Shown here piece after piece: positions 7,805-28,358 of a DNA stretch of 32,000 nucleotides. Position 1 is the stretch's first letter, and every line of letters begins with the position of its first letter. The stretch is taken from the NCBI GenBank assembly GCA_965230905.1, contig OZ246396.1, positions 240,001 through 272,000 of the forward strand, given 5' to 3'. The stretch comes from Candidatus Saccharimonadota bacterium (lineage in GTDB: Bacteria; Patescibacteriota; Gracilibacteria; UBA1369; 2-02-FULL-48-14). The notes under the pieces are model-generated. The model did no database searches, was not told where the DNA came from, and saw nothing but the letters and a program-made list of their open reading frames with translations. Position numbers and translations under genes: made by a program.

Positions 7805-9079
7805 CTATAGATTCCCTTTCATCTTACTGCGCGCTTCGGGATTGAGTACAGCTTTGTTGTCTTTGATGGTGAGTTCGATTTTTCCGGTGACGAATTTAGC
7901 TTCTTCAATGTCCTCTGCAATGGTGAGGCCGGAAGTGATTTGGGAATTGGGACCTATACGGACGCCCGGCATGAGGCTGGTTTGAACGCCCACGCGGATG
8001 TGGCTGCCGAGGATGGGGCCGAGTTTATTGCGGCCACTGTCGCCAATGTTTTTTTCGTCGAGGCGTAGGTTAGCGCACACGGCTCCGGCACCAAAACTCA
8101 CGTCGTCGCCCATCACGGTGTCGCCCACATAATTGCTGTGGAACCAGCAGTCGTCGCCAATGAAGGAGCGTGCGAGTTCGGTGGAATAGCCCACCACACA
8201 GCGCTCACCGATCATGGACTGCCGGACGAGGGCGTTGTTGGCAATCACGGAATTTTTTCCGATGAACGCGGGGCCTTGAATCACGGCGTGATCGAAAACT
8301 TTTACGCCGGCTTCAATGCGAACGGGGCCGTTGATGATGGCCGTTTTTGCGATTTCCGCAGTGGGGTCGATTTGGCTACCCATGACTTTAAATGAGAACT
8401 GCATCAGGTCTAAAATGTGCCACGGAAATTTAACGGGCTGCCAAAAACCACTGTAGGGCACGGCTTCGAAGTGCTGGCCATTCATCAAAGATTGTAGGGC
8501 CGTTTCATAATGGTCGTCGCCTGCACTGTCCACTTTTTTGAGCGCCGCAAAAAGCGTTTCGGGCTGCTTGAATGCGTGCACCACGATGTTCACCAAGTTG
8601 GACGGTTCATTTCCGGCGCCCGGTTTTTCCACAATGCTCGTGATGCGTTTGCCGTCGACTTTCAAATAACCGCCGGGAAAATATTCTTTCACTTCGTAGG
8701 CCAGCAAATAAGCGTCCGACTCGGATTCCTGAGCTTTGATCATGGCTTCGAAAGCACTTTGCGCCAACACATCATTGCTGCTCACCACCAGGAGGCTTTC
8801 ACCGGGTTTGAGGATTTTTTCCATGGTCAGCACAGCGCCCGCCATGCCTTCATCGAGATTTTTTTGTTCCACCACTTGCGCTTCGTAGGGTGCAGCGAGT
8901 TCTCGGAGTTTTTCAAGATTGTGCGCGCCGCCCACAATCACCAAGTCAGTCAGTCCTACGCGTTTGAGCGTATCGAGTTGGTGTTCGAGCAAAGTTCGCC
9001 CTGCAAATTTCAGGAAATTTTTATCTTCAATGGGTTTTACGCGTCGGCTGCGGCCGGCTGCGAGTAGTAGAACTTTCAT
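7805..9079 (-). CDS. Sugar-phosphate nucleotidyltransferase with C-terminal left-handed beta-helix (GlmU/RmlA-like bifunctional architecture)
   Basis: The N-terminus KVLLLAAGRSRR is the NTP-transferase glycine-rich loop. The C-terminal half has hexapeptide-like repeats (IGDDCWFHSNYVGDTVMGDDVSFGAGAV...). The ATG at 9079 is preferred over the TTG at 9091. Confidence 0.8.
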   Translation of the reverse strand: MKVLLLAAGRSRRVKPIEDKNFLKFAGRTLLEHQLDTLKRVGLTDLVIVGGAHNLEKLRELAAPYEAQVVEQKNLDEGMAGAVLTMEKILKPGESLLVVSSNDVLAQSAFEAMIKAQESESDAYLLAYEVKEYFPGGYLKVDGKRITSIVEKPGAGNEPSNLVNIVVHAFKQPETLFAALKKVDSAGDDHYETALQSLMNGQHFEAVPYSGFWQPVKFPWHILDLMQFSFKVMGSQIDPTAEIAKTAIINGPVRIEAGVKVFDHAVIQGPAFIGKNSVIANNALVRQSMIGERCVVGYSTELARSFIGDDCWFHSNYVGDTVMGDDVSFGAGAVCANLRLDEKNIGDSGRNKLGPILGSHIRVGVQTSLMPGVRIGPNSQITSGLTIAEDIEEAKFVTGKIELTIKDNKAVLNPEARSKMKGNL

Positions 9080-9809: not shown

Positions 9810-11042
9810 ATGCAAAACCGTAACTATTCCCTCTGGGTTCTCTACGACTTCGCTAACTCGCTTGCGTTTGTAAACGTTTCTTTTTATTTCAGTCTTTGGC
9901 TGGTTTCCGACCACGGATTCTCAGATTTTTGGGTGAGCATTGCTACGGTCGCTTCCACGGTTTTGTTGCTTTTGACTTTGCCTTTTTTGAGTCATTTTTC
10001 GGATAGGACAGGTAAAAGGATCCTCTTCTTAAGGGTTTTCACCCTTCTTTCCATTTTGAGTTTGGGCATATTGGGTTGGTTGGCCATGAAGTTCCCCTTC
10101 ACCACTACACTTGGATTTACCGTGCTGCTCTTTTACTTCTTTTTTCAACTTTTTTTTCAAGGAAGTTTTTCTTTTTACAATGCATTCATTCAAGACTTTA
10201 CGGCTAAAAAAACAGCTGACCAAGTCTCTGGGATGGGAATGGGCTTCGGACAATTGGGGAACATGATTGGGATTTTGCTAGTTCTGCCCTTGGCAGAAGG
10301 AAGTATGAACTTACTTGGAGAAAGTGGACGTGGAGCCACTTTTTTCGCCTCTGCAGGCTTGTTTTTAATTTTTGCGCTGCCAAGCTTGCTTTTTCTGAAA
10401 GATAAAAGAGCACCGACGCCTTTGACTGAAAGGTTTAATTTTACCGGCAGTTTAAAGAAAGTTTTAAAAACACGTGGAGTACTTGCCTATTTGCTTTCTT
10501 ACTATTTTTTCGCAGACGCCATTTTGACGCTTCAACTTTTTGTAGGCCTTTATTTAGAAGAAGTCGCTGGCATGGACGACCGACAAAAAACACTGACCAT
10601 GGTGGTAGCCCTGATTTGTGGATGTCTAGGTGCTTGGCTGGCCCCTGCTTTTGCGCGCTGGATTAAAAGCAGTTACCGAGCGATTAAGTATTTAATACTT
10701 AGCTGGGCTATTTTACTGGGGCTGTTTAGTATGGCGGTTGCGCCGCTCTTTTTCTCTGTGCTCATCGTGCTAAATGGATTTGCTTTTGGTGCGCTTTTTG
10801 CACTTTCGCGTTCGTATTATTCTGAAATTACTCCTAAAGAGAGCCAGGCTGAGTATTTCAGCATTTATGTACTTTTTGAACGAGCTGCCTCCATTTTAGG
10901 ACCTTTAGTTTGGAGCAGCACGGTGCTTGTTTTTGCCAGCCATGGCGGAGATAAATATCGTTTTGCCATGTTTTCGCTCGCCATATTAGTTGCTATTAGT
11001 TTTGGGATTTTTCTCAAGGTTCCTAAAGACAAAACTTTATGA
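9810..11042 (+). CDS. MFS transporter (UMF1/Atg22-like subfamily by N-terminal motif)
   Basis: 410 aa with about 12 hydrophobic segments. The N-terminus WVLYDFANSLAFVNVSFYFSLWL is typical of this MFS subgroup. Its stop overlaps the start of the next gene (ATGA). Confidence 0.8.
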   Translation: MQNRNYSLWVLYDFANSLAFVNVSFYFSLWLVSDHGFSDFWVSIATVASTVLLLLTLPFLSHFSDRTGKRILFLRVFTLLSILSLGILGWLAMKFPFTTTLGFTVLLFYFFFQLFFQGSFSFYNAFIQDFTAKKTADQVSGMGMGFGQLGNMIGILLVLPLAEGSMNLLGESGRGATFFASAGLFLIFALPSLLFLKDKRAPTPLTERFNFTGSLKKVLKTRGVLAYLLSYYFFADAILTLQLFVGLYLEEVAGMDDRQKTLTMVVALICGCLGAWLAPAFARWIKSSYRAIKYLILSWAILLGLFSMAVAPLFFSVLIVLNGFAFGALFALSRSYYSEITPKESQAEYFSIYVLFERAASILGPLVWSSTVLVFASHGGDKYRFAMFSLAILVAISFGIFLKVPKDKTL

Positions 11043-14244: not shown

Positions 14245-15833
14245 TGCCAAATTTAAACCAAAACTGCCGCGTCACCGGGAAACCCTTTGTTATCACGGAA
14301 TGGGAGCAGGCTTTCTTGAAACGCATGGACATGCCCCTGCCCACGCTGTGCCCGGAGGAAAGGCAGCTGAAACGACTGGCGCATCGGAATGAACGTTCGC
14401 TCTACCAAAGGACTTGCGACCACTGTCAAAAAAATATGGTGGCCCTGTACCCAGCGGCAACTCCATTCCCTGTGTACTGCGGAGATTGTTTTTGGGGTGA
14501 TTCCTGGGACGGCGGCGGCTATGGCCAAGGCTATGATTTGAATCGACCTTTTTTTGAACAATTCAAAGAGCTGCTGAATCGCGTACCGCGGGTGGCCGTG
14601 CTGTCACGCAACTCACAAAATAGCGACTACACCAATTGTGAAGAACAAAATAAAAATTGCTACCTCACTTTTGGTGGTGGCTATTCCGAAGACTGCATGT
14701 ACAGCAACTTTGAACTGTACTGCAAAAATTGCGTGGACTGCTCGTACGTGCACAAGTGTGAACTTTGCTACGAATGCATGGACCTCGAGAATTGTTACCA
14801 TTGTTTTTATCTTACTGATTCCAAAAACTGCAGTGATTGTTTTTTGGGGAATGACTTGATCGGCTGTCACGATTGTTTCGGCTGCAAAGGTTTAAGGAAT
14901 AAGAATTTTTATATTTTTAACGAGCCTTATTCGGAAGAAGCCTATAAGAAGAAAGTGGCGGAGCTTTTACCAAAGATTCAAGATGCAGACGTGCAAGCCC
15001 GTTTTCAAGAACTGGTGCGAACCGTGCCGACTAAATTTGCGCAAATAAACAACTGCGAAAACAGCACGGGTGGATACCTATCCAACAGTCAAAATTGCCA
15101 GTGGTGCTTTGACGCGAAGAATGGGAAAGATTCGATGTATGTCACGTTTGGGGAAAGTTTTAAAGATGTGCTCGACTGCAACGTGAGTTACGTGGGGACC
15201 GAGCTGGTTTATAATTCTCAAAGCGTGTGTCTCAGTGCTTCGTTTGTACGCTGTTGTAATTTTTCATGGACCATAAGTTTTTCCGACTATTCTGATTCCT
15301 GTCACTACTCGAAGAATTTGTTTGGCTGCATTGGGCTGAAACATAAAGAGTACTGCATCCTCAACAAACAATATTCAAAGGAAGACTATGAAGCTTTAGC
15401 CGCGCAAATCATTGAAAAAATGAGGGCGGCTGGCGAGTGGGGCGAGTTTTTTCCTTTCTCTCCTTTTGCCTACAATGAGACCATTGCTCAAGAATATTTT
15501 CCGCTCACGCGTGAGGAAGCGGCCCGGCGTGGGTACGGATGGAAAGAAGAAAATTCCATCAATAATGCCACTGGAGAAGCGGGCACCTGTAAGCAGTGCA
15601 GCAAGGTATATCGCATCATCCCGCAGGAGAAAGCTTTCTATGAAAAGACGGGTCTGACTTCCCCACTGTTTTGCTACAATTGTCGCCACAAAAACCGTAT
15701 CAAACATCGTAATCCACCTTTCTTGTGGACGCGAGCCTGTGCGGAATGCAAAACACCGGTGGCGAGCAACTACCGTCCTGAACGGCCAGAGAAGATTGTG
15801 TGTGAGAAGTGTTATTTGGCTTCGGTTTATTGA
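14244..15833 (+). CDS. Cys-rich paralog P3
   Basis: 529 aa from the ATG at 14244, which overlaps the P2 stop (TGATG). The ORF track's 14220 start would add 8 unconserved residues. Confidence 0.88.
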   Translation: MPNLNQNCRVTGKPFVITEWEQAFLKRMDMPLPTLCPEERQLKRLAHRNERSLYQRTCDHCQKNMVALYPAATPFPVYCGDCFWGDSWDGGGYGQGYDLNRPFFEQFKELLNRVPRVAVLSRNSQNSDYTNCEEQNKNCYLTFGGGYSEDCMYSNFELYCKNCVDCSYVHKCELCYECMDLENCYHCFYLTDSKNCSDCFLGNDLIGCHDCFGCKGLRNKNFYIFNEPYSEEAYKKKVAELLPKIQDADVQARFQELVRTVPTKFAQINNCENSTGGYLSNSQNCQWCFDAKNGKDSMYVTFGESFKDVLDCNVSYVGTELVYNSQSVCLSASFVRCCNFSWTISFSDYSDSCHYSKNLFGCIGLKHKEYCILNKQYSKEDYEALAAQIIEKMRAAGEWGEFFPFSPFAYNETIAQEYFPLTREEAARRGYGWKEENSINNATGEAGTCKQCSKVYRIIPQEKAFYEKTGLTSPLFCYNCRHKNRIKHRNPPFLWTRACAECKTPVASNYRPERPEKIVCEKCYLASVY

Positions 15834-15873
15834 CTTTTTAAAACCTAAAAGTAAAATGGACTTGTTATATGAG

Positions 15874-15924
15874 GAAGTCGCGTCGCAAAGGGGTTGGTCC
15901 CGCGCCATGCGGCTTCATTTTTTA
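15874..15924 (+). terminator. Intrinsic terminator candidate after P3
   Basis: The outer stem pairs GAAGUCGC (15874-15881) with GCGGCUUC (15909-15916) and includes one U-G wobble. Inner CGC/GCG and GGG/CCC pairs follow, then A plus six U (15918-15923). The U-tract exists only on the + strand. Confidence 0.5.
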
Positions 15925-16391
15925 TATTCGAGTTTTTCCCTCAGATCAGATAGAGAGGGTATCCTTTTGTTAAAAGCTTTCTTCAAAAGCAGGGAACAAA
16001 ATCTGTAATCTGGGGATAGGACTAACATAAACTTACTTTTTCCGAGTAAGTATCTGACTAAACAGGCAAAATCACCGTCATTACTAAGCAACAAAGCTTG
16101 GTCGTATTCGGGGTAATCGATCATTGATTGCAAGACAAGCTCTGCATCAACATTAGCTTTAATCTTTCCATTAACAGAGATGGCTTCCTTAAAAATAAGT
16201 TCATAACCTATTTTCTTTAACCTTCTATAAAGATCTTCATTTTCAGGAAGGTATCCTAAAAATATATAAGTTCTTTTAATCTTATATTTGTCTCTTAAAT
16301 ATGTATAAAGTTTAGCCCAGTCTAGCTGCCAACCAGCCGATTTAGTGGCTCGATATACGTTATGTGCATCAATAAAAGCAAAGTTGTTCAT
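15915..16391 (-). CDS. NYN-domain (LabA/DUF88-like) putative ribonuclease
   Basis: 158 aa. FIDAHNVY at the N-terminus, NVDAELVLQSM and LLSNDGDFACLVRYL match the NYN acidic-residue pattern. Confidence 0.8.
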   Translation of the reverse strand: MNNFAFIDAHNVYRATKSAGWQLDWAKLYTYLRDKYKIKRTYIFLGYLPENEDLYRRLKKIGYELIFKEAISVNGKIKANVDAELVLQSMIDYPEYDQALLLSNDGDFACLVRYLLGKSKFMLVLSPDYRFCSLLLKKAFNKRIPSLSDLREKLEYKK

Positions 16392-16456
16392 TTTTAAAGT
16401 CTAAAACGAGTTCAAATATTTGGCTACTCACCAATAGCTCTCTAATCGAGAATTTC

Positions 16457-16498
16457 GCGTTGTTGTAAGTCTGACAACACCCTGCTATTTTGTAGTAT
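16457..16498. promoter_or_regulatory. Shared GCNTTGTTGT motif within an inverted repeat, plus a candidate P4 promoter
   Basis: GCGTTGTTGT at 16457-16466. Inverted repeat TGTTGT (16461-66)-N7-ACAACA (16474-79). Possible -35 CTGACA (16471-76), 16-nt spacer, -10 TAGTAT (16493-98). Confidence 0.4.
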
Positions 16499-16512
16499 CT
16501 AACAAGCTAAAG

Positions 16513-18183
16513 GTGACAAGCTGTAAGCAGTGCCAGAAAACATTCGAAGTTGCTCCTGAAGACCTCGCCTTTTATGATGAAATTTCTCCTAGTTTTGACG
16601 GCAGGAACTTTGCCATACCCACGCCCACAAAATGCTTCTATTGCCGGTTTCAGCAACGCCTCGCTTTCCGAAATGAGCGGAGCCTTTACCATCGCAAGTG
16701 TGATTTGAGCGGCAAGATGATTATTTCCAACTATGCGCCCGATAAACCCTATAAAGTTTACGAGCAAAGCGAATGGTGGAGCGATAAATGGGATGCGCTG
16801 AGTTACGGGCGGGACTTTGATTTCAATCGAAGTTTTACAGATCAATATAAGGAACTTTTGGAGGCAGTGCCGCATTCAGCGCTCACTACTCGGAATGCGG
16901 AAAATAGTGCCTACAGCAACTTTGCACTCAATCAAAAAAATACGTATTTGATTTTTGGATCCGGGGGCGCGGAAGACTGTCTGTATGGAAAATACATCGC
17001 GGATTGCAAGGACTGTGTGGACTGTTTGGCGGTTTACAATTGCGAGCTCTGCTATGAAGGAATCGGCAGTGAACGTTGCTACAACTGTCGCTACTTTATG
17101 AACTCACGCAATTGCACGGATTGCCTCATGATAGACAACTGCCAGTCGTGCAAAAATTGCATCGCCTGTTTTGGGCTGGTGTCCAAAGAATACTGCATTC
17201 TCAATCAATACGTTGGCAAAGAGCAATTCGAGGCGTTCCAAAAAGAATATGAATATTTAACTCCTGAAAAATTGGCGACTTTGCGGGAAAAACTCGACGA
17301 CTTGAAGGCCACTTTACCCCACCGCGAGGCACGGATTTTTGCGGGTGAGAATTGCAGTGGAGACAATGTTTACAACTCAAAAAACTGCCAGACTTGCTTC
17401 GACATTAAGGAGTGTGAAGACTGCAAATACACCAATTTCAGCCCCAAAAATAAGCGCAGCTACGACATCACGTTTAGCGCGCCCGGCGATGTAGAATTTT
17501 GTAATCAAATGTGCTCGACCACCAGTGTGCAGAAGTGCATGGCGGGCTTTTTAGTTTGGTTTGGAGGCAACATTTATTACTCCGAAGAATGTCACAATTG
17601 CAGCGATTGTTTTGGATGCACCGGACTGAAGGGCAAAAAATACTGCATCCTCAATAAGCAGTACACCGCGGAGGAATATCCAAAAATGGTGGCACGCATT
17701 ATTGAACACATGCAAAAGACCGGCGAGTGGGGCGAGTTTTTGGACTACAAACTTTCCATGTTCGGTTATAACGAAACCGTGGCGCAGGAATACTATCCAC
17801 TCAGCAAGGAGCAGGCCTTGGCCCAAGGAATGAACTGGTACGACAAACCCGTGGAGCGTTTGGAGGGCACCGTGATCAGCCAAATTCCCAAGGACATTCG
17901 CACTGTGGACGACACTATTTTAGAAAAAGTGCTCACCGGCGAAGTGCTTGGGCGCCAGTACAAAATCATTCCTCAGGAACTGACATTTTACCGCCGCATG
18001 AAAGTTCCGCTCCCCCGCCGTCACCCGGACATTCGCCATGCCGACCGAGTTGCTCTTCACAATCCCTATGTGCTTTTTGACCGCAGCTGCAGCAAGTGTA
18101 GTAAGGCCATTCAGACGACTTATAGCGAGGAGCGGGCAAAGATTGTATACTGCGAGAAGTGTTATCTTGAAACTGTTTATTAA
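16513..18183 (+). CDS. Cys-rich paralog P4 (GTG start)
   Basis: 556 aa. An AAAGG SD sequence precedes the GTG. The N-terminus MTSCKQCQKTFEVAPEDLAFY aligns with the other paralogs. Confidence 0.88.
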   Translation: MTSCKQCQKTFEVAPEDLAFYDEISPSFDGRNFAIPTPTKCFYCRFQQRLAFRNERSLYHRKCDLSGKMIISNYAPDKPYKVYEQSEWWSDKWDALSYGRDFDFNRSFTDQYKELLEAVPHSALTTRNAENSAYSNFALNQKNTYLIFGSGGAEDCLYGKYIADCKDCVDCLAVYNCELCYEGIGSERCYNCRYFMNSRNCTDCLMIDNCQSCKNCIACFGLVSKEYCILNQYVGKEQFEAFQKEYEYLTPEKLATLREKLDDLKATLPHREARIFAGENCSGDNVYNSKNCQTCFDIKECEDCKYTNFSPKNKRSYDITFSAPGDVEFCNQMCSTTSVQKCMAGFLVWFGGNIYYSEECHNCSDCFGCTGLKGKKYCILNKQYTAEEYPKMVARIIEHMQKTGEWGEFLDYKLSMFGYNETVAQEYYPLSKEQALAQGMNWYDKPVERLEGTVISQIPKDIRTVDDTILEKVLTGEVLGRQYKIIPQELTFYRRMKVPLPRRHPDIRHADRVALHNPYVLFDRSCSKCSKAIQTTYSEERAKIVYCEKCYLETVY

Positions 18184-18184
18184 A

Positions 18185-19795
18185 ATGAAACAAAGCTGTA
18201 AGAATTGCGCGCAAGACTTTGAAATAGCAGATTGGGATCTTCAACTCCTCGATCAAATTTCCCCCGTTTTTCAGGGTAAAAAGTTCAGTATTCCTGCGCC
18301 GGTACTGTGCCCAGGCTGCCGTCAGCAACGTCGCATGGCTTACCGCAATGAACGGAGCCTTTATAAACGTGACTGTGGCAAATGTAAGAAGCCCATGCTG
18401 TCCGTTTATTCAGAAGATAAGCCCTTCACTCTTTATTGCCGCGACTGTTGGTGGTCTGACGAGTGGAATGGCACAGATTTTACACAGGAGTTTGACTTCA
18501 ACCGACCTTTTGCTGAACAGTTTTATGAGTTGATGAAGAAAGTCCCCCAGCTTGGAATTGTGAATGCGGTGGATCAAAACAGTGACTACACCAATTATGG
18601 GTATCAAAACAAAGACTGTTATTTGATCTTCACTTCTGACTTCAATGAGAAATGTTCCTATGGCTGCTTTGTGTGGCGTTCTTTTGATTGTTATGACAAC
18701 CTATTTTTGCTGGAATCGCAGCTCTGTTACGAGTGCTTGGACTGCGTGAAATGTTATGGCTCAGCGTATTGCCGCGAGAGTGAAAGTTTGACGGACTGTT
18801 TTGGCTGCGTGGACTGCCGAAGCTGTGAATCGTGCTTTGGTAGCAGTGGACTTCGAAACAAGAAATACCATTTCTTCAATGAAGCCTTGAGCAAGGAGGA
18901 ATACGAGAAAAAAGTTGCAGAAGCAAAGGCGAACTGGCCCGAGACTTTGCAAAAGTTTAAAGAGGTTGGGAAAGAAACGCCACGCCGGAATTTGTTTTTA
19001 GTGCAATGTGAAAATGTGCTGGGTGACCACTTGAAAAACTGTAAAAATTCTTCCCATTGTTTTGATGGCCAAGAGTTGGAAGAGTGTAAATACATGACCA
19101 ATGCACCTGTTAAGTGTGATCACGACATGGATATTGATGGCGCAGGTTGGTTGTTTTGGTCTTATGAATGCATCAGCACACAGGGAAATCGGCAGCTTTT
19201 TTCCGACCATCATTGGCCAGAAGGATCGGACCTGACCTACTGCTCTTTCTCGATGGGGTCATCCAACTGCTTCGGCTCTGTGGGTGTGAAAAAAGGAAAA
19301 TATTGCATTTTGAACAAGCAGTATTCTAAAGACGACTACGAGGCGCTCATGGTGAAAATAATGGAGCACTTGGTGAAAACTGGGGAATGGGGCAATTGTT
19401 TCTTACCACCGTATTCGCGCTTTGCTTACAACGAAACCGTGGCCCAGCAATATTATCCGCTGACCAAGGAGGCTGCGTTGAAACTCGGTTACCGGTGGCA
19501 TGAAGAAAACGTGGAGAAATACAGTGGAAAAATGGATGACGTGGTGATTTGTGAGGTCAGTGGGAAGGCATTCCGGCTCATTCCCCAGGAGCTGGAGTTC
19601 TACAAAAAACTCGGCCTCCCCTTGCCTAAACGTCACCCAGAAGTGCGCATGAAAGATCGTGAAGCGCTGCGCAATCCACGACAATTTTGGACACGAGGAT
19701 GTGATTCGTGTGGGGTGCAAATGCAATCCACCTATTCGCCGGACCGGCCAGAGAAAGTGTATTGCGAAGCCTGTTATCTTAAAACCGTCTATTGA
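18185..19795 (+). CDS. Cys-rich paralog P5
   Basis: 536 aa from the ATG at 18185, 1 nt after the P4 stop. The N-terminus MKQSCKNCAQDFEI aligns with the family. The ORF-track start at 18038 lies inside P4. Confidence 0.88.
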   Translation: MKQSCKNCAQDFEIADWDLQLLDQISPVFQGKKFSIPAPVLCPGCRQQRRMAYRNERSLYKRDCGKCKKPMLSVYSEDKPFTLYCRDCWWSDEWNGTDFTQEFDFNRPFAEQFYELMKKVPQLGIVNAVDQNSDYTNYGYQNKDCYLIFTSDFNEKCSYGCFVWRSFDCYDNLFLLESQLCYECLDCVKCYGSAYCRESESLTDCFGCVDCRSCESCFGSSGLRNKKYHFFNEALSKEEYEKKVAEAKANWPETLQKFKEVGKETPRRNLFLVQCENVLGDHLKNCKNSSHCFDGQELEECKYMTNAPVKCDHDMDIDGAGWLFWSYECISTQGNRQLFSDHHWPEGSDLTYCSFSMGSSNCFGSVGVKKGKYCILNKQYSKDDYEALMVKIMEHLVKTGEWGNCFLPPYSRFAYNETVAQQYYPLTKEAALKLGYRWHEENVEKYSGKMDDVVICEVSGKAFRLIPQELEFYKKLGLPLPKRHPEVRMKDREALRNPRQFWTRGCDSCGVQMQSTYSPDRPEKVYCEACYLKTVY

Positions 19796-21432
19796 TGTCG
19801 ACCTGTAAACAGTGCAATCGCCCTTACGAAATCACTTCTGAGGATGAGGGTTTTTATAAAAAATTCAGTGCCAGGGATTTGGGTCGTTGCTTTGAATGTA
19901 GCCAGAAAAATCATCTGGCACTTCGCAATGCGCGCTGTTTGTATCACCGAAAATGTGATGCTACCAGTGAGGATACTATTTCTATGTATTCGCCGGATAA
20001 ACCTTACAAAGTCTATAAAAGTGATCACTGGTACAGCGACGCTTGGGATGCCATGGATTATGGACAGGATTTTGACTTTTCTCGGTCTTTTTTTGGACAA
20101 CTCAAGGAGTTACAGCTCAAAGTACCACGCCTGGCTTTGTCCAACATCAACGCCATGAACAGTGACTACTGCAACTCTTCCTATGGAAATAAAAACTGTT
20201 ATTTAATCTTTGGCGGTGACAACAACGAAGATTGCATGTTCGGGACCTTATGTATGAAAAATACACGGTCGCTGGATTTGGACTTCAGCAATTTCAACGA
20301 ACTTTCTTACATGCTTGCTGACTGTTTTCAGTGTTACAACACTCAGTTCGCCATAGACTCCAAGAGTTGTACCGACAGCGCTTTTTTGAGCGATTGTACC
20401 AGTTGTAGTGACTGTATTTTATGCAGCAATTTGGTGAATAAATCCTACTGCATCCTAAATAAGCAGTATTCTAAGGAAGAATATTTCTTAAAAAAAGCTG
20501 AGCTTTTAAATGGGACTTACTCACAACAAAAGCAGTTATTTGACTCATTTAAAGCACTACTCGGCGAGCGCATTGTGAAATATGCCCACACGGTTTCCTG
20601 CCAAAATTGTAGCGGTGATTATATTAAGAACAGCAAGAATTGTACGATGTGCTTCAACGTTACGGACAGCGAAGATTTGAGAAATATTGTTTTTGCGAAT
20701 AAGAGCAAGGATTGTTTCAATTCCAGCATGTTGGGTGACAATAGCGAGTTGGCTTACGAAACGGTTTCCGCTTACCGCGCTTACAATGTTCAATTTTCTT
20801 TTTTTGTGATTGATTCGAGCAATATTGAATACTGTGACGTTGCGATCAATTCAAAAGATTTGTTCGGCTGCGTGGGCATGCGCAATAAGCAGTACTGCAT
20901 TTTTAACAAGCAATATAGTAAGGAAGACTTTGAGTATTTACGCACAAAGATTATTGAACACATGAAGAAGACCGGGGAATGGGGTGAGTTTTTCCCAAAA
21001 ACATTTTCCTGTTTTGCTTACAATGAAACCACGGCAAATGTGTATCAGCCGATGACCAAAGAACGTGCACTTGCCGAAGGCTATACGTGGAAGGATGAAG
21101 ACCACAAAAAAGTCCATATTCCGTCCTCACCACTTCCAGATAAAATTGAAGACGTTTCTGATTCTATTTTAAAAGAGATTCTTTTATGTGAGGGGTGCCA
21201 AAAAAATTATCGCATCATTTCACAAGAGCTACAGTTTTATAGAGCCCAGCGGCTTCCCATCCCTCACTTGTGTTCAGAATGTCGACAAGGAGTTCGCAAA
21301 GATCTCCTCAACCCTAGACAACTTTGGCAGCGCCCATGCGACTCCTGTGGAAGCTCTATGCAAACCACCTATTCGCCCAAGCGACCCGAAAAAGTGTATT
21401 GTGAAGCCTGTTATCTTAAAACAGTCTACTGA
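19795..21432 (+). CDS. Cys-rich paralog P6
   Basis: 545 aa. The ATG at 19795 overlaps the P5 stop (TGATG). Confidence 0.88.
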   Translation: MSTCKQCNRPYEITSEDEGFYKKFSARDLGRCFECSQKNHLALRNARCLYHRKCDATSEDTISMYSPDKPYKVYKSDHWYSDAWDAMDYGQDFDFSRSFFGQLKELQLKVPRLALSNINAMNSDYCNSSYGNKNCYLIFGGDNNEDCMFGTLCMKNTRSLDLDFSNFNELSYMLADCFQCYNTQFAIDSKSCTDSAFLSDCTSCSDCILCSNLVNKSYCILNKQYSKEEYFLKKAELLNGTYSQQKQLFDSFKALLGERIVKYAHTVSCQNCSGDYIKNSKNCTMCFNVTDSEDLRNIVFANKSKDCFNSSMLGDNSELAYETVSAYRAYNVQFSFFVIDSSNIEYCDVAINSKDLFGCVGMRNKQYCIFNKQYSKEDFEYLRTKIIEHMKKTGEWGEFFPKTFSCFAYNETTANVYQPMTKERALAEGYTWKDEDHKKVHIPSSPLPDKIEDVSDSILKEILLCEGCQKNYRIISQELQFYRAQRLPIPHLCSECRQGVRKDLLNPRQLWQRPCDSCGSSMQTTYSPKRPEKVYCEACYLKTVY

Positions 21433-23051
21433 TGAACGCTTGTAAGCAATGCCAAAAACCGTTTGAAGTGACCGAGGTGGAACGAGAATTTTTGAAGAAA
21501 GTGGCGCCTACCGTGGGTGGACGTCAGTTTGAAATTCCCGAGCCTAAACTGTGCCCGGATTGCCGACGACAACGACGTTACGCGCAACGGAATGACCGAA
21601 ATATTTACCGCCGAACCTGTGACAAAACTGGGAAGTCCATTATCTCGGCGCATCACCCCGATAAACCCTTCCCCGTCTACGCCATTGATGTGTGGTGGAG
21701 CGATGCCTATGACCCTAAAGCCTACGGGCGTGACTTTGATTTTAGCCGGACTTTTTTTGAGCAGTTTAAAGAGCTTTCTTATACAGTTCCGCGGGCGGCT
21801 TCCATTGTGGTGGCTTCTGAAAATTGTGATTACACCATCTTCACCCTGCAGAGCCGGAACTGTTTTCTTTCGTCTCGTTTGGCGGAGGTAGAAGATATTT
21901 ATTATTCCTACCTCGCTTTTAAAAGCCGTTCCTGTTTTGACGGCTACAATTTGATGGAATGTGAACTGTGCTACGAGTGCGTGGACTGTGGGAAATGCTA
22001 CCAATGTATGTACACCACCAGTTCAAAAGGCTCCTTCAACTTGATGTTCTGCAGCGACATGTCTGGTTCCAATAATTGTTTTGGATGCGTGGGGATGGTT
22101 CAAAAACAATACTGCTTTTTCAATCAACAACTCAGCAAAGAAGAGTACGAAAAACGCGTGAAGGAATGCTTCGATGGCTCTCACGAAAGTGTGCTGCGCT
22201 GCCAAGCGGCGTTTGCCGAACATAGCAAAAAATTCCCTGTACGAGCAACGCAAGTTTTCAACTCTGATAATGCACAAGGCAGCCACATATTTGAGAGCAA
22301 AAACGTCATCAACTCCTACGATATCGCCGGCTCGGAAGATATCATCAATTGCACTCAAACTGAAACGAGCAAAGACATGATGGACTGTGACTTCACCTAC
22401 GTCTGCGAGCTCTCTTACGAGCTTATTTCAGGAGGGAAAAGCATGCGGAATTTGTTTTCTTTCTCGCTGGTGGGAAACAACAACGACGTCATGTATTCGC
22501 ACTATTGCAATAATGGGAATCAGAATTTGTTTGGATGCGTGGGCATGAAAAACAGCAAATATTGCATCTTTAACAAGCAGTACACCAAAGAGGAATACGA
22601 AGAACTCGTGCCACGAATCATTGAGCACATGCAGAAGACAGGCGAGTGGGGTGAGGGGATACCCATTGAACTTTCTACCATGTCTTATAACGAAAGTGCT
22701 GCGCAAGAACGATTTCCCCTGACTAAAGAAGAAGTGCTGGCTCGCGGATGGACTTGGTACGACGCGCCCGAAAGCACGGTGGCGCAGGCCGAAGGCGAGA
22801 ATGTGGTTCACTGTGAAGTAAGCGGCAAATCTTTCCGTCTCATCCCACAGGAATTGAAGTTTTACAAAGACATGGGCCTGCCCTTGCCCACGCGTCACCC
22901 CGATGTCCGCCACCAGGATCGTTTAAATCGCCGCACGCCCTACCAATTGCATGAAACCAAGTGTCGCAAGTGTGGAGAGGACATGATGACCGACCAAAGC
23001 GAAAACAAGCTTATTTACTGCCAGAAGTGTTATTTGGCAGAGACTTACTGA
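21432..23051 (+). CDS. Cys-rich paralog P7
   Basis: 539 aa. The ATG overlaps the P6 stop (TGATG). Confidence 0.9.
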   Translation: MNACKQCQKPFEVTEVEREFLKKVAPTVGGRQFEIPEPKLCPDCRRQRRYAQRNDRNIYRRTCDKTGKSIISAHHPDKPFPVYAIDVWWSDAYDPKAYGRDFDFSRTFFEQFKELSYTVPRAASIVVASENCDYTIFTLQSRNCFLSSRLAEVEDIYYSYLAFKSRSCFDGYNLMECELCYECVDCGKCYQCMYTTSSKGSFNLMFCSDMSGSNNCFGCVGMVQKQYCFFNQQLSKEEYEKRVKECFDGSHESVLRCQAAFAEHSKKFPVRATQVFNSDNAQGSHIFESKNVINSYDIAGSEDIINCTQTETSKDMMDCDFTYVCELSYELISGGKSMRNLFSFSLVGNNNDVMYSHYCNNGNQNLFGCVGMKNSKYCIFNKQYTKEEYEELVPRIIEHMQKTGEWGEGIPIELSTMSYNESAAQERFPLTKEEVLARGWTWYDAPESTVAQAEGENVVHCEVSGKSFRLIPQELKFYKDMGLPLPTRHPDVRHQDRLNRRTPYQLHETKCRKCGEDMMTDQSENKLIYCQKCYLAETY

Positions 23052-23803
23052 GCCACAAACGCCGTTGCCCCCAGCCAGGCTAGATTGAATACGGCGCGTT
23101 GGGTGCGTGCGTACACCGCGGATTCGATGTGCACTCCAATGAGTTCGTCCGGGTTGAGCGACATGATGGCGGCCGAGTTGTCGTAGATGGAAATTTGGTT
23201 TTCGAAGCGGAATTCCTTGGGGTTCACAAAGAGGATTTCTACGAGTTCTTCAGGGTATTTTTTTGGATAAAAGCGTTTAATGAACTGGCGTGCTTCTTCG
23301 GTGGACGGCGAGAGCAGGCGGGTTTTTATACGACGTTTCACGAGTTTTTCTGTGTACGAAGGGAGGTAGTCGGGGAGGAGTTTTCCAAGCGCTTCCAAGT
23401 TGGTGTAACCCAGAACTTCCGACTTAGCTTCGAGCGTTTGCTCAAAAATGGTTTTGATTCCATCAATGCCTTCATAGGAGCGAATGATTGGTTTGAAGGC
23501 CAGGGCATTCGTGACGGAAAGTAGCTCAGGCAGCAATTTTTTGGCGCTTTGGTATTGTTCCTCCATTTGGTTCACCAGCACTTGCGGCGGCTCAGCCACA
23601 AAGAACTTCACTTTTCCTTTAAAATTAGCCGTCACAAGACCACGTTTGCGCAGGCTTTCCAGTACATAATAACAGTTCACACGTGCGATTTTAGCCTTGC
23701 TGGCGATGGTACTTGCGAAGGAGCCACCCAGTTCCAAAACTGTGAGGTAAACCTGGGCTTCTTCTTCCGAAAGACCGAATTCTTGTAGCTTTTCTTTGAG
23801 CAT
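23045..23803 (-). CDS. TrmB-family transcriptional regulator (N-terminal winged helix plus C-terminal domain)
   Basis: 252 aa. LQEFGLSEEEAQVYLTVLELGGSFASTIASKAKIARVNCYYVLESLRKRGLV is a typical TrmB-type HTH. The gene is convergent with P7 (7-nt overlap) and divergent from P8. Confidence 0.8.
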   Translation of the reverse strand: MLKEKLQEFGLSEEEAQVYLTVLELGGSFASTIASKAKIARVNCYYVLESLRKRGLVTANFKGKVKFFVAEPPQVLVNQMEEQYQSAKKLLPELLSVTNALAFKPIIRSYEGIDGIKTIFEQTLEAKSEVLGYTNLEALGKLLPDYLPSYTEKLVKRRIKTRLLSPSTEEARQFIKRFYPKKYPEELVEILFVNPKEFRFENQISIYDNSAAIMSLNPDELIGVHIESAVYARTQRAVFNLAWLGATAFVAQ

Positions 23804-23816
23804 GTCGCTTGGATTC

Positions 23817-23873
23817 GCTTTGTTGTAAAAAGTTTTCTACAACTAATATAACCTGTAATAACCGATTTTCCAA
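23817..23873. promoter_or_regulatory. Shared GCNTTGTTGT motif in a 22-bp near-palindrome, plus a candidate minus-strand promoter for the TrmB-like gene
   Basis: GCTTTGTTGT at 23817-23826. GTTGTAAAAAG/TTTTCTACAAC at 23822-23843 matches at 9 of 11 palindromic positions. On the minus strand, TTGGAA (23873-23868), a 17-nt spacer and TATATT (23850-23845) would place the transcription start inside the palindrome. Confidence 0.45.
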
Positions 23874-23930
23874 GGCAATGTTAGTTATAAACTTACAGCT
23901 ATGCTAAAATTGAGTTAATTAAAATTCATT

Positions 23931-25616
23931 ATGACCAATTGCAAACACTGCCAAACCAGCTTTGAGATCCGTCCAGAGGATTTGGCCTTTTACGACGAGA
24001 TGTCTCCGGTTTTTGGCGGGAAAAAGTTTGCGATTCCGGCGCCTACGCTCTGTCCCGATTGCCGCTGGCAACGACGTATGAGTTTCCGAAATGAACGCAC
24101 GCTGTATTTGCGAAAATGTGACCTCACCGGAAAGTCCATGGTGAGTATGCATCCCGCTGGCACCCCCTTCCCCGTTTACAGCATTACCGAGTGGCTGAGC
24201 GATAAGTGGGAACCTCTAGACTTCGGCCGTGACTTCGATTTCAATCGGCCCTTCTTCGATCAATTCAAAGAGATGTGTGAGCAAATCCCGCATTTTAGTT
24301 TGTTTGTGGACCCCCACTTGGACATCAACTCCGACTACACCAACTGCTCGAACAGTGCGAAAAATTGTTATCTCATTTCGCAGGCGGAAGTGAATGAGGA
24401 TTGTTATTACTCCAGAGGAATCAACCGTTCCAAAGATTGTGGAGACTGTTTGCGCATTCATCAATGTGAGCTCTGCTACGAATGCACCAGTATGATGGGC
24501 TGTTACCACTGTCTCTATTCGCAAGAATGTGAAACCTCCTCGGATTGTTACTTTTCCAGCGACTTAAAGAGCTGCCAAAATTGTTTCGGCTCTCATGATT
24601 TGATTCAAAAACAGTATTATTGGTTCAACCAGCCCCTCGGCAAAGAAGCGTGGGAGAAACGTATGAAAGAATTTGTATGGAGCCGCGAAAATATCGAATG
24701 GGCCAAGCAAGAAAGTGAAAAATTAAAGCTCTCACTGCCTCGCCGCGCGGTCCACACCACTCAGTGTGAAAATTCCTCTGGTGACCACATCATGCAATGT
24801 AAGAATTCTCACCTAGTTTTTGATTCTTTGTATTTGGAAGATTCTGCTTATTGTTACGAAGTTTTCAACGGCGCCAAAAAGGCCTACGACTACTCCATGT
24901 GGGGCGTGAATGCGGAATTTATTTACGAGTGTAACGGGTGTGGATTCAATGTAAACAACCTGCTCTTTTCAAATCACTGTTGGCAAAACGTGAGCAATTT
25001 AATTTACTGCGAAAGCTCTTTCCCGAGCGTAAAAGATTGTTTTGGATGCTTTGGTTTGAAGCGCAAACAGTACTGTATTTTGAATAAGCAATATAGCAAA
25101 GAGGAGTATGAGGCTTTGGTGCCACGAATCATTGAACATATGCAAAAGACGGGCGAGTGGGGTGAGTTCTTCCCTGCTAGTATTTCTCCTTATGGCTACA
25201 ATGAATCCCTCGCAGCCTCCTTCTTTCCACTCAGCAAAGAAGAGGTTTTAAAGCGCGGTTGGAATTGGTATGAAAAAGAAGAAGCAATCGACCAATATAT
25301 TGGCCCCAACGTGAAAATTCCAAACAGTATTCAGGAAGTTGACGACGCTATTTGCAGCCAAATTTTAAAATGTGAAAAGACCGGAAAACTTTACAAAATC
25401 ATTCCCCAAGAATTGAAGTTGTATCGAACTTTGGGAGTTCCCCTGCCTACGCTTTGCCCCGAAGAAAGACACCAGGCCAGAATGACGGCGCGTAATCCAC
25501 GACATTTGTGGGAACGTACCTGTCAAAACTGTCAGAAAGGCGTTCAGAGTTCCTACTCGCCCGAAAGGCCTGAGAAAGTCTTTTGTGAGGAATGTTATTT
25601 AAAAACGGTTTACTAG
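23931..25616 (+). CDS. Cys-rich paralog P8
   Basis: 561 aa. The N-terminus is MTNCKHCQTSFEIRPEDLAFY, and the C-terminus ends CEECYLKTVY-stop. Confidence 0.9.
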   Translation: MTNCKHCQTSFEIRPEDLAFYDEMSPVFGGKKFAIPAPTLCPDCRWQRRMSFRNERTLYLRKCDLTGKSMVSMHPAGTPFPVYSITEWLSDKWEPLDFGRDFDFNRPFFDQFKEMCEQIPHFSLFVDPHLDINSDYTNCSNSAKNCYLISQAEVNEDCYYSRGINRSKDCGDCLRIHQCELCYECTSMMGCYHCLYSQECETSSDCYFSSDLKSCQNCFGSHDLIQKQYYWFNQPLGKEAWEKRMKEFVWSRENIEWAKQESEKLKLSLPRRAVHTTQCENSSGDHIMQCKNSHLVFDSLYLEDSAYCYEVFNGAKKAYDYSMWGVNAEFIYECNGCGFNVNNLLFSNHCWQNVSNLIYCESSFPSVKDCFGCFGLKRKQYCILNKQYSKEEYEALVPRIIEHMQKTGEWGEFFPASISPYGYNESLAASFFPLSKEEVLKRGWNWYEKEEAIDQYIGPNVKIPNSIQEVDDAICSQILKCEKTGKLYKIIPQELKLYRTLGVPLPTLCPEERHQARMTARNPRHLWERTCQNCQKGVQSSYSPERPEKVFCEECYLKTVY

Positions 25617-26368
25617 ATCCTGTCCCACATCCAGTTGAATAAAGTGAGCAAGGATTGATGGAGATGTTTTTCACGAATTTTAATGCCCACTTCATTCTTA
25701 GGGTCGTAACTATTAAAAATTACGTAGTCGTTTACCAAAATCACATCTGAGAAAAAGAGGGCGGAACTTTCCATCTCTTTGATCTGGTGGTTTGGATTGT
25801 TCACATGACTTTTGTACCAATCGGTCATAGGGCCAGCGACTAGAATTTCACGGATCTGTACCTTGGTATTGGACGTTGATTTTAAAAAGTTTTTGACCAG
25901 ATTTTTATAACGTTCCGTTTTGATGGCGAGCTGGGGATTGAAAAAAGAAGTGAAGTCCCCACTCAGCAAAGTCTCTTCCAATTGGAGGTACACGGCCTCC
26001 ATGGATTCAAACGTGGAAATTTCAAAAGCTCCAAAGTCCTGAGTTTTCGGAAGGAGCTGCTTAAGGTGAGTTTGTAAAAGTTGCGTCGCACTTTGAACAT
26101 CTTCGAATTGCTCACGAGCGTGGGCTTCCAAAATTTTGGCCGTCATATCGGGGGCCAAACAACTGAAGTAGGTCACTGAGCCGCGTTTTTTACGAGCTAC
26201 GATTCCCAGATGGACGAGCGTATCCAAAGCGGCGTATACCGTGGTGCGTTTGAGGTGCAATTGTTTAGCCAGCACGCTGGCGATGCTCTCTCCACGCTCA
26301 AATAAATGGAGGAAAACGGCTTGTTCCGTGGCATTGAGTCCGCAGGTTTGGAGGAGGTTTTCGAGCAT
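25613..26368 (-). CDS. TrmB-family transcriptional regulator, second copy
   Basis: The HTH segment is LNATEQAVFLHLFERGESIASVLAKQLHLKRTTVYAALDTLVHLGIV. I prefer the ATG at 26368 over 26413 for three reasons. MLENLLQTCGL aligns with MLKEKLQEFGL of the first copy. An AAGG SD sequence lies upstream. A good minus-strand promoter sits where the longer ORF would begin. Confidence 0.75.
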   Translation of the reverse strand: MLENLLQTCGLNATEQAVFLHLFERGESIASVLAKQLHLKRTTVYAALDTLVHLGIVARKKRGSVTYFSCLAPDMTAKILEAHAREQFEDVQSATQLLQTHLKQLLPKTQDFGAFEISTFESMEAVYLQLEETLLSGDFTSFFNPQLAIKTERYKNLVKNFLKSTSNTKVQIREILVAGPMTDWYKSHVNNPNHQIKEMESSALFFSDVILVNDYVIFNSYDPKNEVGIKIREKHLHQSLLTLFNWMWDRI

Positions 26369-26372
26369 TTGC

Positions 26373-26432
26373 GCCTTGTTGTCAATTAAATTTTGACAGT
26401 ATAAGTTTAGCATTTTCAGGTTAAATTTGCAA
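26373..26432. promoter_or_regulatory. Shared GCNTTGTTGT motif in an inverted repeat, plus a candidate minus-strand promoter for the second TrmB-like gene
   Basis: GCCTTGTTGT at 26373-26382. Inverted repeat TGTCAA (26380-85)-N7-TTGACA (26393-98). On the minus strand: TTGCAA (26432-26427), 17-nt spacer, TAAACT (26409-26404). Confidence 0.45.
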
Positions 26433-26442
26433 GTAAGCTGCT

Positions 26443-26478
26443 TAGACTATTGTTGAAATATGACAAATAGTCTAGTAT
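26443..26478. promoter_or_regulatory. Second palindrome, overlapping a candidate P9 promoter
   Basis: Perfect 9-bp arms TAGACTATT (26443-51) and AATAGTCTA (26466-74). Candidate -35 TTGTTG (26450-55), 17-nt spacer, -10 TAGTAT (26473-78). Confidence 0.4.
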
Positions 26479-26498
26479 TACATCTTGTAACAAACTCT

Positions 26499-28109
26499 AT
26501 GGAAACCCTTCAAACGGCCTGCGCACACTGCCAAAAGAATTTCGAACTCGATGCACAGGATCAAGCGTTCTATAAGGAAATCAACGTCCCCCACCCCACC
26601 CAGTGCCCGGATTGCCGTGAACAGCGCCGGCTCGCGTGGCGAAATGAACGCACACTCTACTTAAGGAAATGCGACCTCACGGGTGAACCCACGCTTTCCG
26701 TTTTTTCAGAGGACAAGCCTTATAAGGTTTATAAAAATGACCATTGGTATTCCGATAAATGGAATCCGCTGGATTACGGGCAGGACTTCGATTTTTCTCG
26801 GCCTTTCTTTGAACAGTTTGATGAGCTTTTACATAAGGTCCCGCAGCTCGCGCTTTCCACGACCGGGAACCAGAATTCCGATTTCATCAACCAAGCGGGA
26901 TGGTGCAAGGATTGCTATTTGATCTTTGAGGCTGATTTCAATGAAAAGTGTATGTACTCGACCCACATTGGAGATTCCAGAGACTGCATGGACGGCCTTC
27001 AAGTGATGAAGTCAGAACTTTGTTACGAGTGCATCGATTGTCAAAATGGCTACAACCTGCGTTTTGCTCAGGATTCCATGAATTGTTCGGATTCTTGGTT
27101 CTTAAAAAACTGTATCGGGTGTTCGAATTGTTTTGGTTGTGTGAATCTACGGAATCAAAAGTTCTGCATTTATAATGAACAGTACTCACAGGAAGATTAT
27201 TTTAAAAAATTGGCTAGTTTTGATCTGCAAAATCGCACCGGCCTAGAAAAGATGCGGGACGATTTCACCGCCTACGCCGCCCAATTTCCTCACAAAAATT
27301 ACCATGGCGTGCAGACGGAAAATTGCAAGGGTGACTACTTATACAACTCGCAAAATTGCCACGGTTGTTTTGACGTGAGCAATTCGCAGGATTGCAAATT
27401 TGTAACCGATTCGCGTAACTGTAAGAAGGTTTACGATATGACGGTTTTCGGTGCCCAAAAGGGAGTGGAGTTTTGCTACGAGTGTCATGAAGTTGGACAC
27501 GGCGTACGGAATTTATACTTCTGTGATCAGGTTTGGGACAGCTGTTATGAGCTATACTACACCAAGCTCAGCATGCAAAATTGTCACCATTTGTTTGGAT
27601 GTATTGGTTTCCGCCGCGGCTCGTATTGTATTTTGAATAAGCAGTACACAAAGGAGGAATATGAAGCCTTGGTGCCGCGCATTATTGAGCACATGAAAAA
27701 GACCGGCGAGTGGGGTGAATTCTTCCCTATCAGCATGAGTCCGTTTGCCTACAATGAAACCCTTGCGGAGCAGTATTTTCCACTCGGAAAAGAAAAGGCG
27801 GAGGCCCTGGGATACGGGTGGAAAGAAGAAGCTAAAACGCCCATAGTACCGGGCCTGCCAGCCTGTGATACGTGCGGAAAAAACTACAAAATTGTGAGCC
27901 AAGAAGAAGAATTTTACCAAAAGATGAAACTGCCGCATCCTACGAGTTGTTCTGAATGCAGACACAAGAAGCGCTCGGCGCTGCGAAATCCACGAAAACT
28001 CTGGGACCGGGCGTGTGCACAGTGCTCTACAGCTATTCAAACCAGCTATTCGCCGGAACGGAGCGAAAAAGTCCTTTGTGAAGCGTGTTATCTGAAAGAG
28101 ACTTACTAA
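26499..28109 (+). CDS. Cys-rich paralog P9
   Basis: 536 aa from the ATG at 26499 (METLQTACAHCQ...). The upstream ATG at 26460 would add 13 residues absent from all the other paralogs and lies upstream of the predicted -10, but it cannot be excluded. Confidence 0.85.
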   Translation: METLQTACAHCQKNFELDAQDQAFYKEINVPHPTQCPDCREQRRLAWRNERTLYLRKCDLTGEPTLSVFSEDKPYKVYKNDHWYSDKWNPLDYGQDFDFSRPFFEQFDELLHKVPQLALSTTGNQNSDFINQAGWCKDCYLIFEADFNEKCMYSTHIGDSRDCMDGLQVMKSELCYECIDCQNGYNLRFAQDSMNCSDSWFLKNCIGCSNCFGCVNLRNQKFCIYNEQYSQEDYFKKLASFDLQNRTGLEKMRDDFTAYAAQFPHKNYHGVQTENCKGDYLYNSQNCHGCFDVSNSQDCKFVTDSRNCKKVYDMTVFGAQKGVEFCYECHEVGHGVRNLYFCDQVWDSCYELYYTKLSMQNCHHLFGCIGFRRGSYCILNKQYTKEEYEALVPRIIEHMKKTGEWGEFFPISMSPFAYNETLAEQYFPLGKEKAEALGYGWKEEAKTPIVPGLPACDTCGKNYKIVSQEEEFYQKMKLPHPTSCSECRHKKRSALRNPRKLWDRACAQCSTAIQTSYSPERSEKVLCEACYLKETY

Positions 28110-28240
28110 AAATTTGATTGGATAGCTAGCCATTCGTCTTCTGTTGGGAGATCATCAAACTTCATTTGAGACAAAGCCTTCGCATCTTTTTCTAACTGTA
28201 CTTCTAGAGGTGACATCGAAATTACATTAAATATTGCCAT
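28103..28240 (-). CDS. Possible 45-aa small ORF (MAIFNVISMSPLEVQLEKDAKALSQMKFDDLPTEDEWLAIQSNF)
   Basis: I translated this by hand from the minus strand because it is below the ORF-track size cutoff. ATG at 28240, stop TAG at 28103-28105. It occupies an otherwise empty 249-bp spacer. No SD sequence or homology evidence. Confidence 0.2.
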
Positions 28241-28309
28241 AGAAGTTTACTTCATTAATCGTTTCATACAAAACCTAAACATCGGGATTCAATTAACCTG
28301 TCCACCAGG

Positions 28310-28338
28310 TTGCTCTTTAGGTCAAAATTTGCTATAAT
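28310..28338 (+). promoter_or_regulatory. Sigma70-like promoter for the ATPase gene
   Basis: TTGCTC at 28310-15, a 17-nt spacer, then TGcTATAAT (hexamer 28333-38). It lies 20 nt upstream of the ATG at 28359. Confidence 0.45.
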
Positions 28339-28358
28339 AAAGCATTGGTAAAACAAAT

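Follow-up and report, generated by a model that had tools for sequence, protein, structure and literature searches.

The window analysed here is a stretch of 32,000 nucleotides (nt) from a Candidatus Saccharimonadota bacterium (assembly GCA_965230905.1, contig OZ246396.1, positions 240,001 to 272,000), and the subject of this study is a set of three inverted repeats located in the divergent intergenic regions of a paralog array. Nine plus-strand paralogs (P1 to P9), which are cysteine-rich and about 540 amino acids (aa) in length, occupy positions 11039-28109. The array is interrupted by three minus-strand genes, encoding an NYN-domain protein and two TrmB-like regulators (TrmB1 and TrmB2). 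The window belongs to a genome of Candidatus Peregrinibacteria and is located on NODE_1 of ENA ERZ1292638, a 1.3-Mb contig from Hainich groundwater. The repeats between NYN and P4, TrmB1 and P8, and TrmB2 and P9 are referred to as sites 1, 2 and 3, and the coordinates of the features are listed in Table 1.

Table 1. Features of the three divergent intergenic regions and the genes that flank them (window coordinates).
Feature	Coordinates	Strand	Remarks
10-mer copy 1, GCGTTGTTGT	16457..16466	+	sequence scan
10-mer copy 2, GCTTTGTTGT	23817..23826	+	sequence scan
10-mer copy 3, GCCTTGTTGT	26373..26382	+	sequence scan
Fourth 10-mer copy	7851..7860	+	coding, 3' part of the 7805-9091 gene; extended flanks absent
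Type D element (site 1), GGTGTTGTCAGACTTACAACAACG	16458..16481	-	66 nt upstream of NYN ATG, 34 nt upstream of P4 GTG
Type A operator-like palindrome (site 2), TTGTAGAAAACTTTTTACAACA, TrmB1 orientation	23821..23842	-	matrix 32.5 bits; kept in 52 orthologous loci
TrmB1 promoter (predicted)	23845..23873	-	-35 TTGGAA 23868-23873, 17-nt spacer, -10 TATATT 23845-23850
Type C operator-like palindrome (site 3), CTGTCAAAATTTAATTGACAACA, TrmB2 orientation	26377..26399	-	before 8/8 TrmB2-type genes
TrmB2 promoter (inferred)	26404..26432	-	-35 TTGCAA 26427-26432, 17-nt spacer, -10 TAAACT 26404-26409
NYN-domain gene	15915..16391	-	Pfam PF01936, E 8.7e-13; accessory cassette splitting the paralog array
Paralog P4	16513..18183	+	first gene of the P4-P7 unit, divergent from NYN
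TrmB-like regulator 1 (TrmB1)	23045..23803	-	252 aa, TrmBL2-like architecture
Paralog P8	23931..25616	+	divergent from TrmB1
TrmB-like regulator 2 (TrmB2)	25613..26368	-	251 aa
Paralog P9	26499..28109	+	divergent from TrmB2; ATG 26499 chosen from paralog alignment

A 10-mer common to the three divergent intergenic regions

Scanning of the window identified four copies of the 10-mer GCNTTGTTGT (at 16457, 23817, 26373 and 7851), all on the plus strand, against 0.46 expected, and none of 100 shuffles gave four. Three of these copies are located in the divergent intergenic DNA, which totals about 380 nt. A preliminary description of the window had reported these three copies in the same orientation, each within an inverted repeat, and our analysis agrees with it on both points: dyads were found at 16461-16479 (TGTTGTAAG/CTGACAACA, with perfect 6-nt arms, TGTTGT-N7-ACAACA, and 8 of 9 positions pairing overall), at 23819-23846 (TTTGTTGTAAAAA/TTTCTACAACTAA, 85% complementary) and at 26380-26398 (the perfect inverted repeat TGTCAA-N7-TTGACA). 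The fourth copy, in a coding region, is probably due to chance. The core TTGTTGT by itself occurs eight times in the window compared to 7.1 expected, which is background level.

The motif common to the intergenic copies exceeds the 10-mer of the preliminary description and reads T-N-CGC-N-TTGTTGT-N-A. All three regions contain the 11-mer CGCNTTGTTGT; when they were shuffled with dinucleotides preserved, a common 11-mer with one wildcard arose in two of 1000 trials (P ~0.002) and a common 13-mer with two wildcards in none of 300. The heptamer ACAGGTT was also considered as a linking motif and found unconvincing (seven in the window, 3.2 expected).

Read on the minus strand, the 10-mer becomes ACAACAANGC. 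The core TTGTTGT is the reverse complement of ACAACA(A), which forms the conserved 3' end of three differing palindromes, and all three palindromic elements have the orientation of the minus-strand genes. The hexamer ACAACA itself consists of the final three bases of the right half-site followed by a conserved ACA that trails both operator types described below. Judged from the sequence comparison, the 10-mer is thus a composite, the common tail of three palindromes, and not a functional unit.

Palindrome upstream of TrmB1

The element at site 2 was found to be a 22-nt palindrome, CTGTAGAAA-N4-TTTTTACAACA, designated type A, which ends 17 nt before the ATG of TrmB1 (23803). About 80 related loci from Peregrinibacteria, numbered with the prefix L, were compared in all. 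For TrmB1, 69 genome loci encoding a relative were retrieved, in most of which the regulator is divergent from a P-family gene, and the gene start was fetched in 62. In 52 of these 62, the TrmB1 ortholog was found to be preceded directly by CTGTAGAAA-N4-TTT(T/C)TACAACA, with six invariant positions (T4, G5, T6, A9, A19 and C20). Loci without a divergent P gene were also found to be without the type A element.

A matrix built from the 52 orthologous sites gave 32.5 bits at 23819-23844 on the minus strand of the window (20.4 bits for the plus-strand reading), compared to 11.1 bits for the next-best match in the window and about 10 bits reached by shuffled windows. Extending the search to 526 kb of related loci revealed 56 matches scoring 20 bits or more, each oriented like the regulator gene, and 53 of these immediately precede a TrmB1-like gene; the others are L025:6219, L050:3129 and L052:2723. 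At L052:2723-4000 the gene for an AAA-type ATPase sits between the putative type A operator with its promoter and the TrmB1 gene, and the element therefore stays beside the P gene, not beside the regulator.

The layout of the TrmB1 promoter, with its 17-nt spacer and a gap of 2 nt between the -10 hexamer and the palindrome, was also found in orthologs. In 47 of 57 instances of type A and type B (see below) taken together, 0-4 nt separated the end of the -10 hexamer from the element, and the -35 hexamer lay 17 nt further up. The gap was exactly 2 nt in 32 cases by the count of the script, whose offset under-counts the window's own gap of 2 nt by one.

Palindrome upstream of TrmB2

The element at site 3, CTGTCAA-N7-TTGACAACA (type C), differs from the type A palindrome. 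It ends 8 nt before the TrmB2 start, which ortholog alignment places at ATG 26368 and not at the upstream ATG 26413, and 4 nt separate it from the -10 box. The pattern TGT(C/T)AA-N7-NNGACAACA was found before all eight TrmB2-type genes (eight loci including the window), 4 nt after a promoter of the same -35/17/-10 arrangement, and it usually abuts the ATG. When at most one mismatch was allowed, the type C pattern had no further occurrence in 862 kb.

A perfect 9-nt inverted repeat, TAGACTATT-N14-AATAGTCTA, is also present on the P9 side of the TrmB2-P9 region (26443-26451/26466-26474), where it straddles ATG 26460. Its outer arms are not kept in locus L077, the nearest relative; the inner block TTGTCAT...AACAAT is kept.

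Regulator proteins and their recognition helices

TrmB1 and TrmB2 share only 22% protein identity. Hundreds of orthologs were found for TrmB1, and the subfamily of TrmB2 is small, with 15 clusters. Analysis of domains revealed the N-terminal winged helix-turn-helix of the TrmB family (PF01978) in both proteins, with E 2.8e-15 and 56 bits (cut-off 25.6) for TrmB1 and E 3.1e-09 and 37 bits for TrmB2. The structural model of TrmB1 (mean predicted local distance difference test, pLDDT, 89.1) consists of a winged helix, a long helix and a C-terminal alpha/beta domain. Over its full length the model matched TrmBL2 (E 3.7e-13) and TrmB 3QPH (E 3.7e-09) in a Foldseek search, and the TrmB1 sequence profile matched residues 9-187 of PDB 3QPH (E 1.5e-09). 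A sugar-binding effector subdomain was not detected, Pfam showing no C-terminal TrmB domain, and the length of TrmB1 fits TrmBL2 and not TrmB. NCBIfam equivalogs gave 19-41 bits against cut-offs of 500-650.

Comparison of the start of the recognition helix with the half-site revealed that RVNCY or RVSCY occurs with TGTAG, RATCY with TGTTG and RTTVY with TGTCA. These half-site-tracking residues open the helix at 41-53 of the TrmB1 model (mean pLDDT 89) and align to the recognition helix of Pyrococcus furiosus TrmB (PDB 3QPH). The RATCY proteins form a third TrmB-like subfamily (L016:2355, L020, L022, L031, L035, L042 and L048) with the dyad CTGTTGAA-N-...CAACAACA, designated type B. This subfamily is without a member in the window and coexists with type A in L016, and its element follows the -10 box at 7-16 nt, not at 2 nt.

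Dyad between NYN and P4

The element at site 1 belongs to a further class, type D, with the consensus GGTGTTG-N9-CAACAACG(C), the spacing of which fits neither type A nor type C. A reading of sites 1 and 3 as degenerate type A elements was rejected, as the type A matrix gave less than 6 bits at both compared to 32.5 at site 2. A search of the fetched loci for TGTTG-N9-CAACA, followed by a flank-aware search, identified type D in L076/L167, L074, L005/L101, L002 and L100. In those loci the element is located 70-145 nt upstream of a cassette of an RHH-type antitoxin and a PemK toxin, and a -35-like hexamer follows it within a few nt. Conservation of the flank ACG(C) was found in L076, L002, L074 and L100. 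The genomic settings vary, the element being found after a TrmB1 stop codon or beside the point where a type IV coupling-protein-like gene or a P gene begins.

Type D is not a general part of the antitoxin/PemK cassette, since among the 24 closest metagenome PemK loci only L100 and L101 (same contig as L005) have it, and a PemK cassette within a P array in L106 is without it. A role as terminator fits L005 alone, where the element follows the TrmB1 stop codon, and not the other contexts.

Homologs of NYN show at most 59% identity and are scattered over phyla in unrelated contexts. Seven contigs with an identical NYN gene are identical upstream as well, the NYN junction being specific to one population, and a corresponding junction is absent from L077 and L078, which are close relatives. 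Orthologous footprinting of site 1 is therefore impossible, as NYN has no close relatives and the contigs that carry it are identical upstream. As far as the gene neighbourhoods indicate, site 1 accompanies accessory cassettes (NYN here, antitoxin/PemK elsewhere) in a sub-clade near this organism, and not a TrmB gene.

Proposed function of sites 2 and 3

Overall, we consider it likely that sites 2 and 3 are the cognate operators of TrmB1 and TrmB2, respectively, each serving negative autoregulation as one of two separate pairs, with site 1 as a third, cassette-associated dyad. A dimer of the winged-helix regulator would bind the dyad in front of its own gene and block RNA polymerase. This proposal draws on the conservation, position, occurrence specificity and covariation with the protein that were found in the sequences, from which we infer binding and the sign of regulation.

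The elements begin 2-4 nt after the -10 box of the regulator's own sigma-70-type promoter, so that they cover the transcription start, which is predicted inside the left arm of the dyad. The preliminary description had placed the repeats just upstream of the TrmB-like starts and downstream of a minus-strand promoter, a position that suits autorepression, and the distances reported above support this placement. It had also regarded the repeats as operator candidates for the TrmB-like proteins; this can be retained for sites 2 and 3, which are kept in orthologous promoters, and not for site 1.

With respect to the divergent paralogs, we estimate from hexamer positions that roughly 90-100 nt separate the centre of the operator from the likely start downstream of it. 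Any effect on P8 or P9 would therefore be activation or looping and not occlusion. A second operator was not found at the paralog promoters, where no half-site had a partner with operator-like spacing. Conserved P-proximal blocks (TTTACAA, TTGACAA and TTGACn) were considered as an operator and are most simply explained as -35 hexamers.

Several observations weigh against this proposal. The transcription starts are read from consensus hexamers only, and the TrmB2 promoter, which was read from the sequence together with ortholog alignment, does not reach the threshold of the consensus scan. The right half-site is followed by a conserved ACA that has no counterpart on the left side, so that the elements are not simple dyads. 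An extra flank, ANGCGMA, is common to the three elements in the window (P ~0.002) and is left unexplained by the operator model. Phylogeny confounds the correspondence of recognition helix and half-site, since each subfamily is probably one clade. The type B element, by its distance from the -10 box, would be fully transcribed, and a role in RNA is possible there.

Alternative explanations

Comparison across species revealed that ACAACA alone is kept and that the NGC(G) part of the 10-mer is gone in most orthologs, many of which have no room for GCN because the ATG directly follows ACAACA. GCN was found only in L077, which has both regulators and carries ACAACAAAGC and ACAACAAGGCG before its two TrmB genes. 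The 10-mer is consequently not the conserved unit. The part beyond ACAACA, that is GCN and the match at site 1, may have no function of its own, having arisen by coincidence or by local sequence exchange among regions that separately end in ACAACA, and we give this explanation an even chance. Its absence from orthologs more distant than L077, the copy of the 10-mer in coding DNA and the background frequency of TTGTTGT are consistent with this, whereas the shuffle P of ~0.002 for the common 11-mer and the conservation of the type D flank in four loci argue against it.

Instead of being DNA operators, the palindromes could form hairpins in the 5' leaders of the regulator transcripts and influence mRNA stability or translation. 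For the TrmB1 leader a folding energy of -9.5 kcal/mol (z -3.5) was obtained, and the G-T opposition that is frequent in the dyad would be a G-U pair only on the sense strand (38 of 54 sequences). One pair exchanges A-U to U-A in seven sequences, and the element often abuts the start codon or, in the type B subfamily, lies well downstream of the -10 box. However, it appears to be the sequence that is kept rather than the pairing: 94% of the cells in the alignment are paired, mostly via invariant sequence, two of the seven pairs never vary and only one of the seven is changed on both sides. Furthermore, the predicted transcription start falls within the left arm, the hairpins of TrmB2 (z -1.5) and site 1 (z -0.7) are no more stable than shuffles, no Rfam match was obtained, and the half-site tracks the recognition helix of the protein. 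We therefore regard an RNA hairpin as improbable.

It is equally improbable that the TrmB-like proteins bind one and the same operator, GCNTTGTTGT with a half-site downstream of it, in all three regions, uniting NYN/P4-P7, TrmB1/P8 and TrmB2/P9 in one regulon as proposed in the preliminary description. The sharing of CGCNTTGTTGT beyond chance, the common orientation of the copies, each in a dyad, and the conservation in front of both TrmB genes of L077 favour it. Against it, only ACAACA is kept across species, the half-sites and spacings differ (TGTAGAAA-N4, TGTCAA-N7 and TGTTG-N9), sites 1 and 3 are not recognised by the type A matrix, and type D adjoins antitoxin/PemK cassettes without an adjacent P-gene start in L002 and L005. 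The differing half-sites (TGTAGAA and TGTCAA), together with the differing recognition helices of the two regulators, indicate two separate regulator-operator pairs. Since sites 2 and 3 are each specific to one subfamily and site 1 belongs to a third class, a single regulon of the three units is not supported.

Other features of the array and its neighbourhood

Longest open reading frames (ORFs) probably begin too far upstream for TrmB2 (26413/26368), P9 (26460/26499), P5 (18038/18188) and P3 (14220/14241); with the downstream starts, the paralog alignment of P9, P5 and P3 is good over the whole length. P-family proteins have treble-clef-like zinc ribbons at both ends, and their Pfam matches are weak zinc-finger matches only. 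A fold search with the model of P8 (pLDDT 72) gave no PDB match with E <1, nothing was found for the P family in NCBIfam, and neither the P family nor NYN gave a match in PADLOC. Arrays of P genes recur across Peregrinibacteria, often adjoining a type IV coupling-protein-like ATPase, and related ones contain HicAB, PemK, AbiEii and transposase genes as interruptions.

At the upstream edge of the array (9182-9788), a small VapB-like ORF is followed by a PIN-domain gene, a toxin-antitoxin-like pair. The decayed C-terminal part of an RHH-type antitoxin (...KFDDLPTEDEWLAIQSNF*) was identified on the minus strand at 28110-28358; this antitoxin is intact in L167, L002 and L074, and the copy in the window is without the PemK toxin and the type D dyad. 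A further palindrome, AACCTG-N5-CAGGTT, is located at 28295-28311, upstream of a coupling-protein-like gene at 28359. It is kept in L002, L077 and L167 and represents a further candidate operator.

Comparison with known systems and significance

Characterised proteins of the TrmB family bind spaced palindromes, a site over the transcription start leads to repression, and Tgr and TrmBL1 have been suggested to be autoregulated (PMC4158304). The proteins described here share the N-terminal TrmB winged helix and spaced inverted repeats with archaeal TrmB, TrmBL1 and Tgr (TACT-N3-AGTA; TGM TATCAC-N5-GTGATA) and with Halobacterium TrmB (TACT-N7-8-GAGTA). In contrast to those systems, the host belongs to the bacterial candidate phyla radiation and has sigma-70-type promoters, the proteins measure about 250 aa with no sugar-binding subdomain detected, the half-sites TGTAGAA, TGTTGAA and TGTCAA are unrelated to the archaeal ones, and the neighbours are orphan cysteine-rich paralogs instead of sugar genes.

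The best full-length match to the TrmB1 model was TrmBL2 of Thermococcales (PDB 5BOX and 5BPD; E ~4e-13, about 265-273 alignment columns), which the titles of the PDB entries name an archaeal chromatin protein. TrmBL2 is, like TrmB1, of similar length and without the sugar-binding subdomain. TrmBL2 binds DNA with little sequence specificity, whereas the proteins in this study each appear to be linked to a single, sharply delimited dyad at a single promoter.

The layout works like that of LysR-type systems, in which an autoregulated regulator and its target are divergent and a dyad lies over the promoter of the regulator and upstream of the divergent promoter. The protein family here is unrelated, the dyad lies near -90 to -100 of the paralog promoter by estimate, and activation of the divergent gene as in the LysR-type layout would be only an analogy. 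The elements appear to be palindromic operators of the TrmB family with putative autoregulation, in paralog-specific pairs and in an uncultured phylum. No paper was found in a full-text literature search that combined Peregrinibacteria with TrmB. To our knowledge, little has been described of the control of transcription in candidate-phyla-radiation bacteria, few of which are cultured.

As a practical result, the start codons of the regulators are now fixed for annotation. The analysis also provides three clearly delimited candidate operators, each matched to a regulator subfamily and to a proposed recognition-helix signature, and all are directly testable in vitro. We tentatively suggest, as a possibility that we do not rate highly, that Peregrinibacteria have at least three mutually orthogonal TrmBL2-like regulator/operator pairs (TGTAGAA with RVNCY, TGTTGAA with RATCY and TGTCAA with RTTVY), which would be interspersed in orphan cysteine-rich arrays, each switching a subset of the paralogs, and that a fourth dyad, TGTTG-N9-CAACA, would do likewise for captured accessory cassettes. 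The paralog arrays are modular, in that regulator-plus-promoter units persist while neighbouring paralogs and cassettes turn over, and the putative regulator/operator pairs would constitute a small natural series on how TrmB-type winged helices read DNA.

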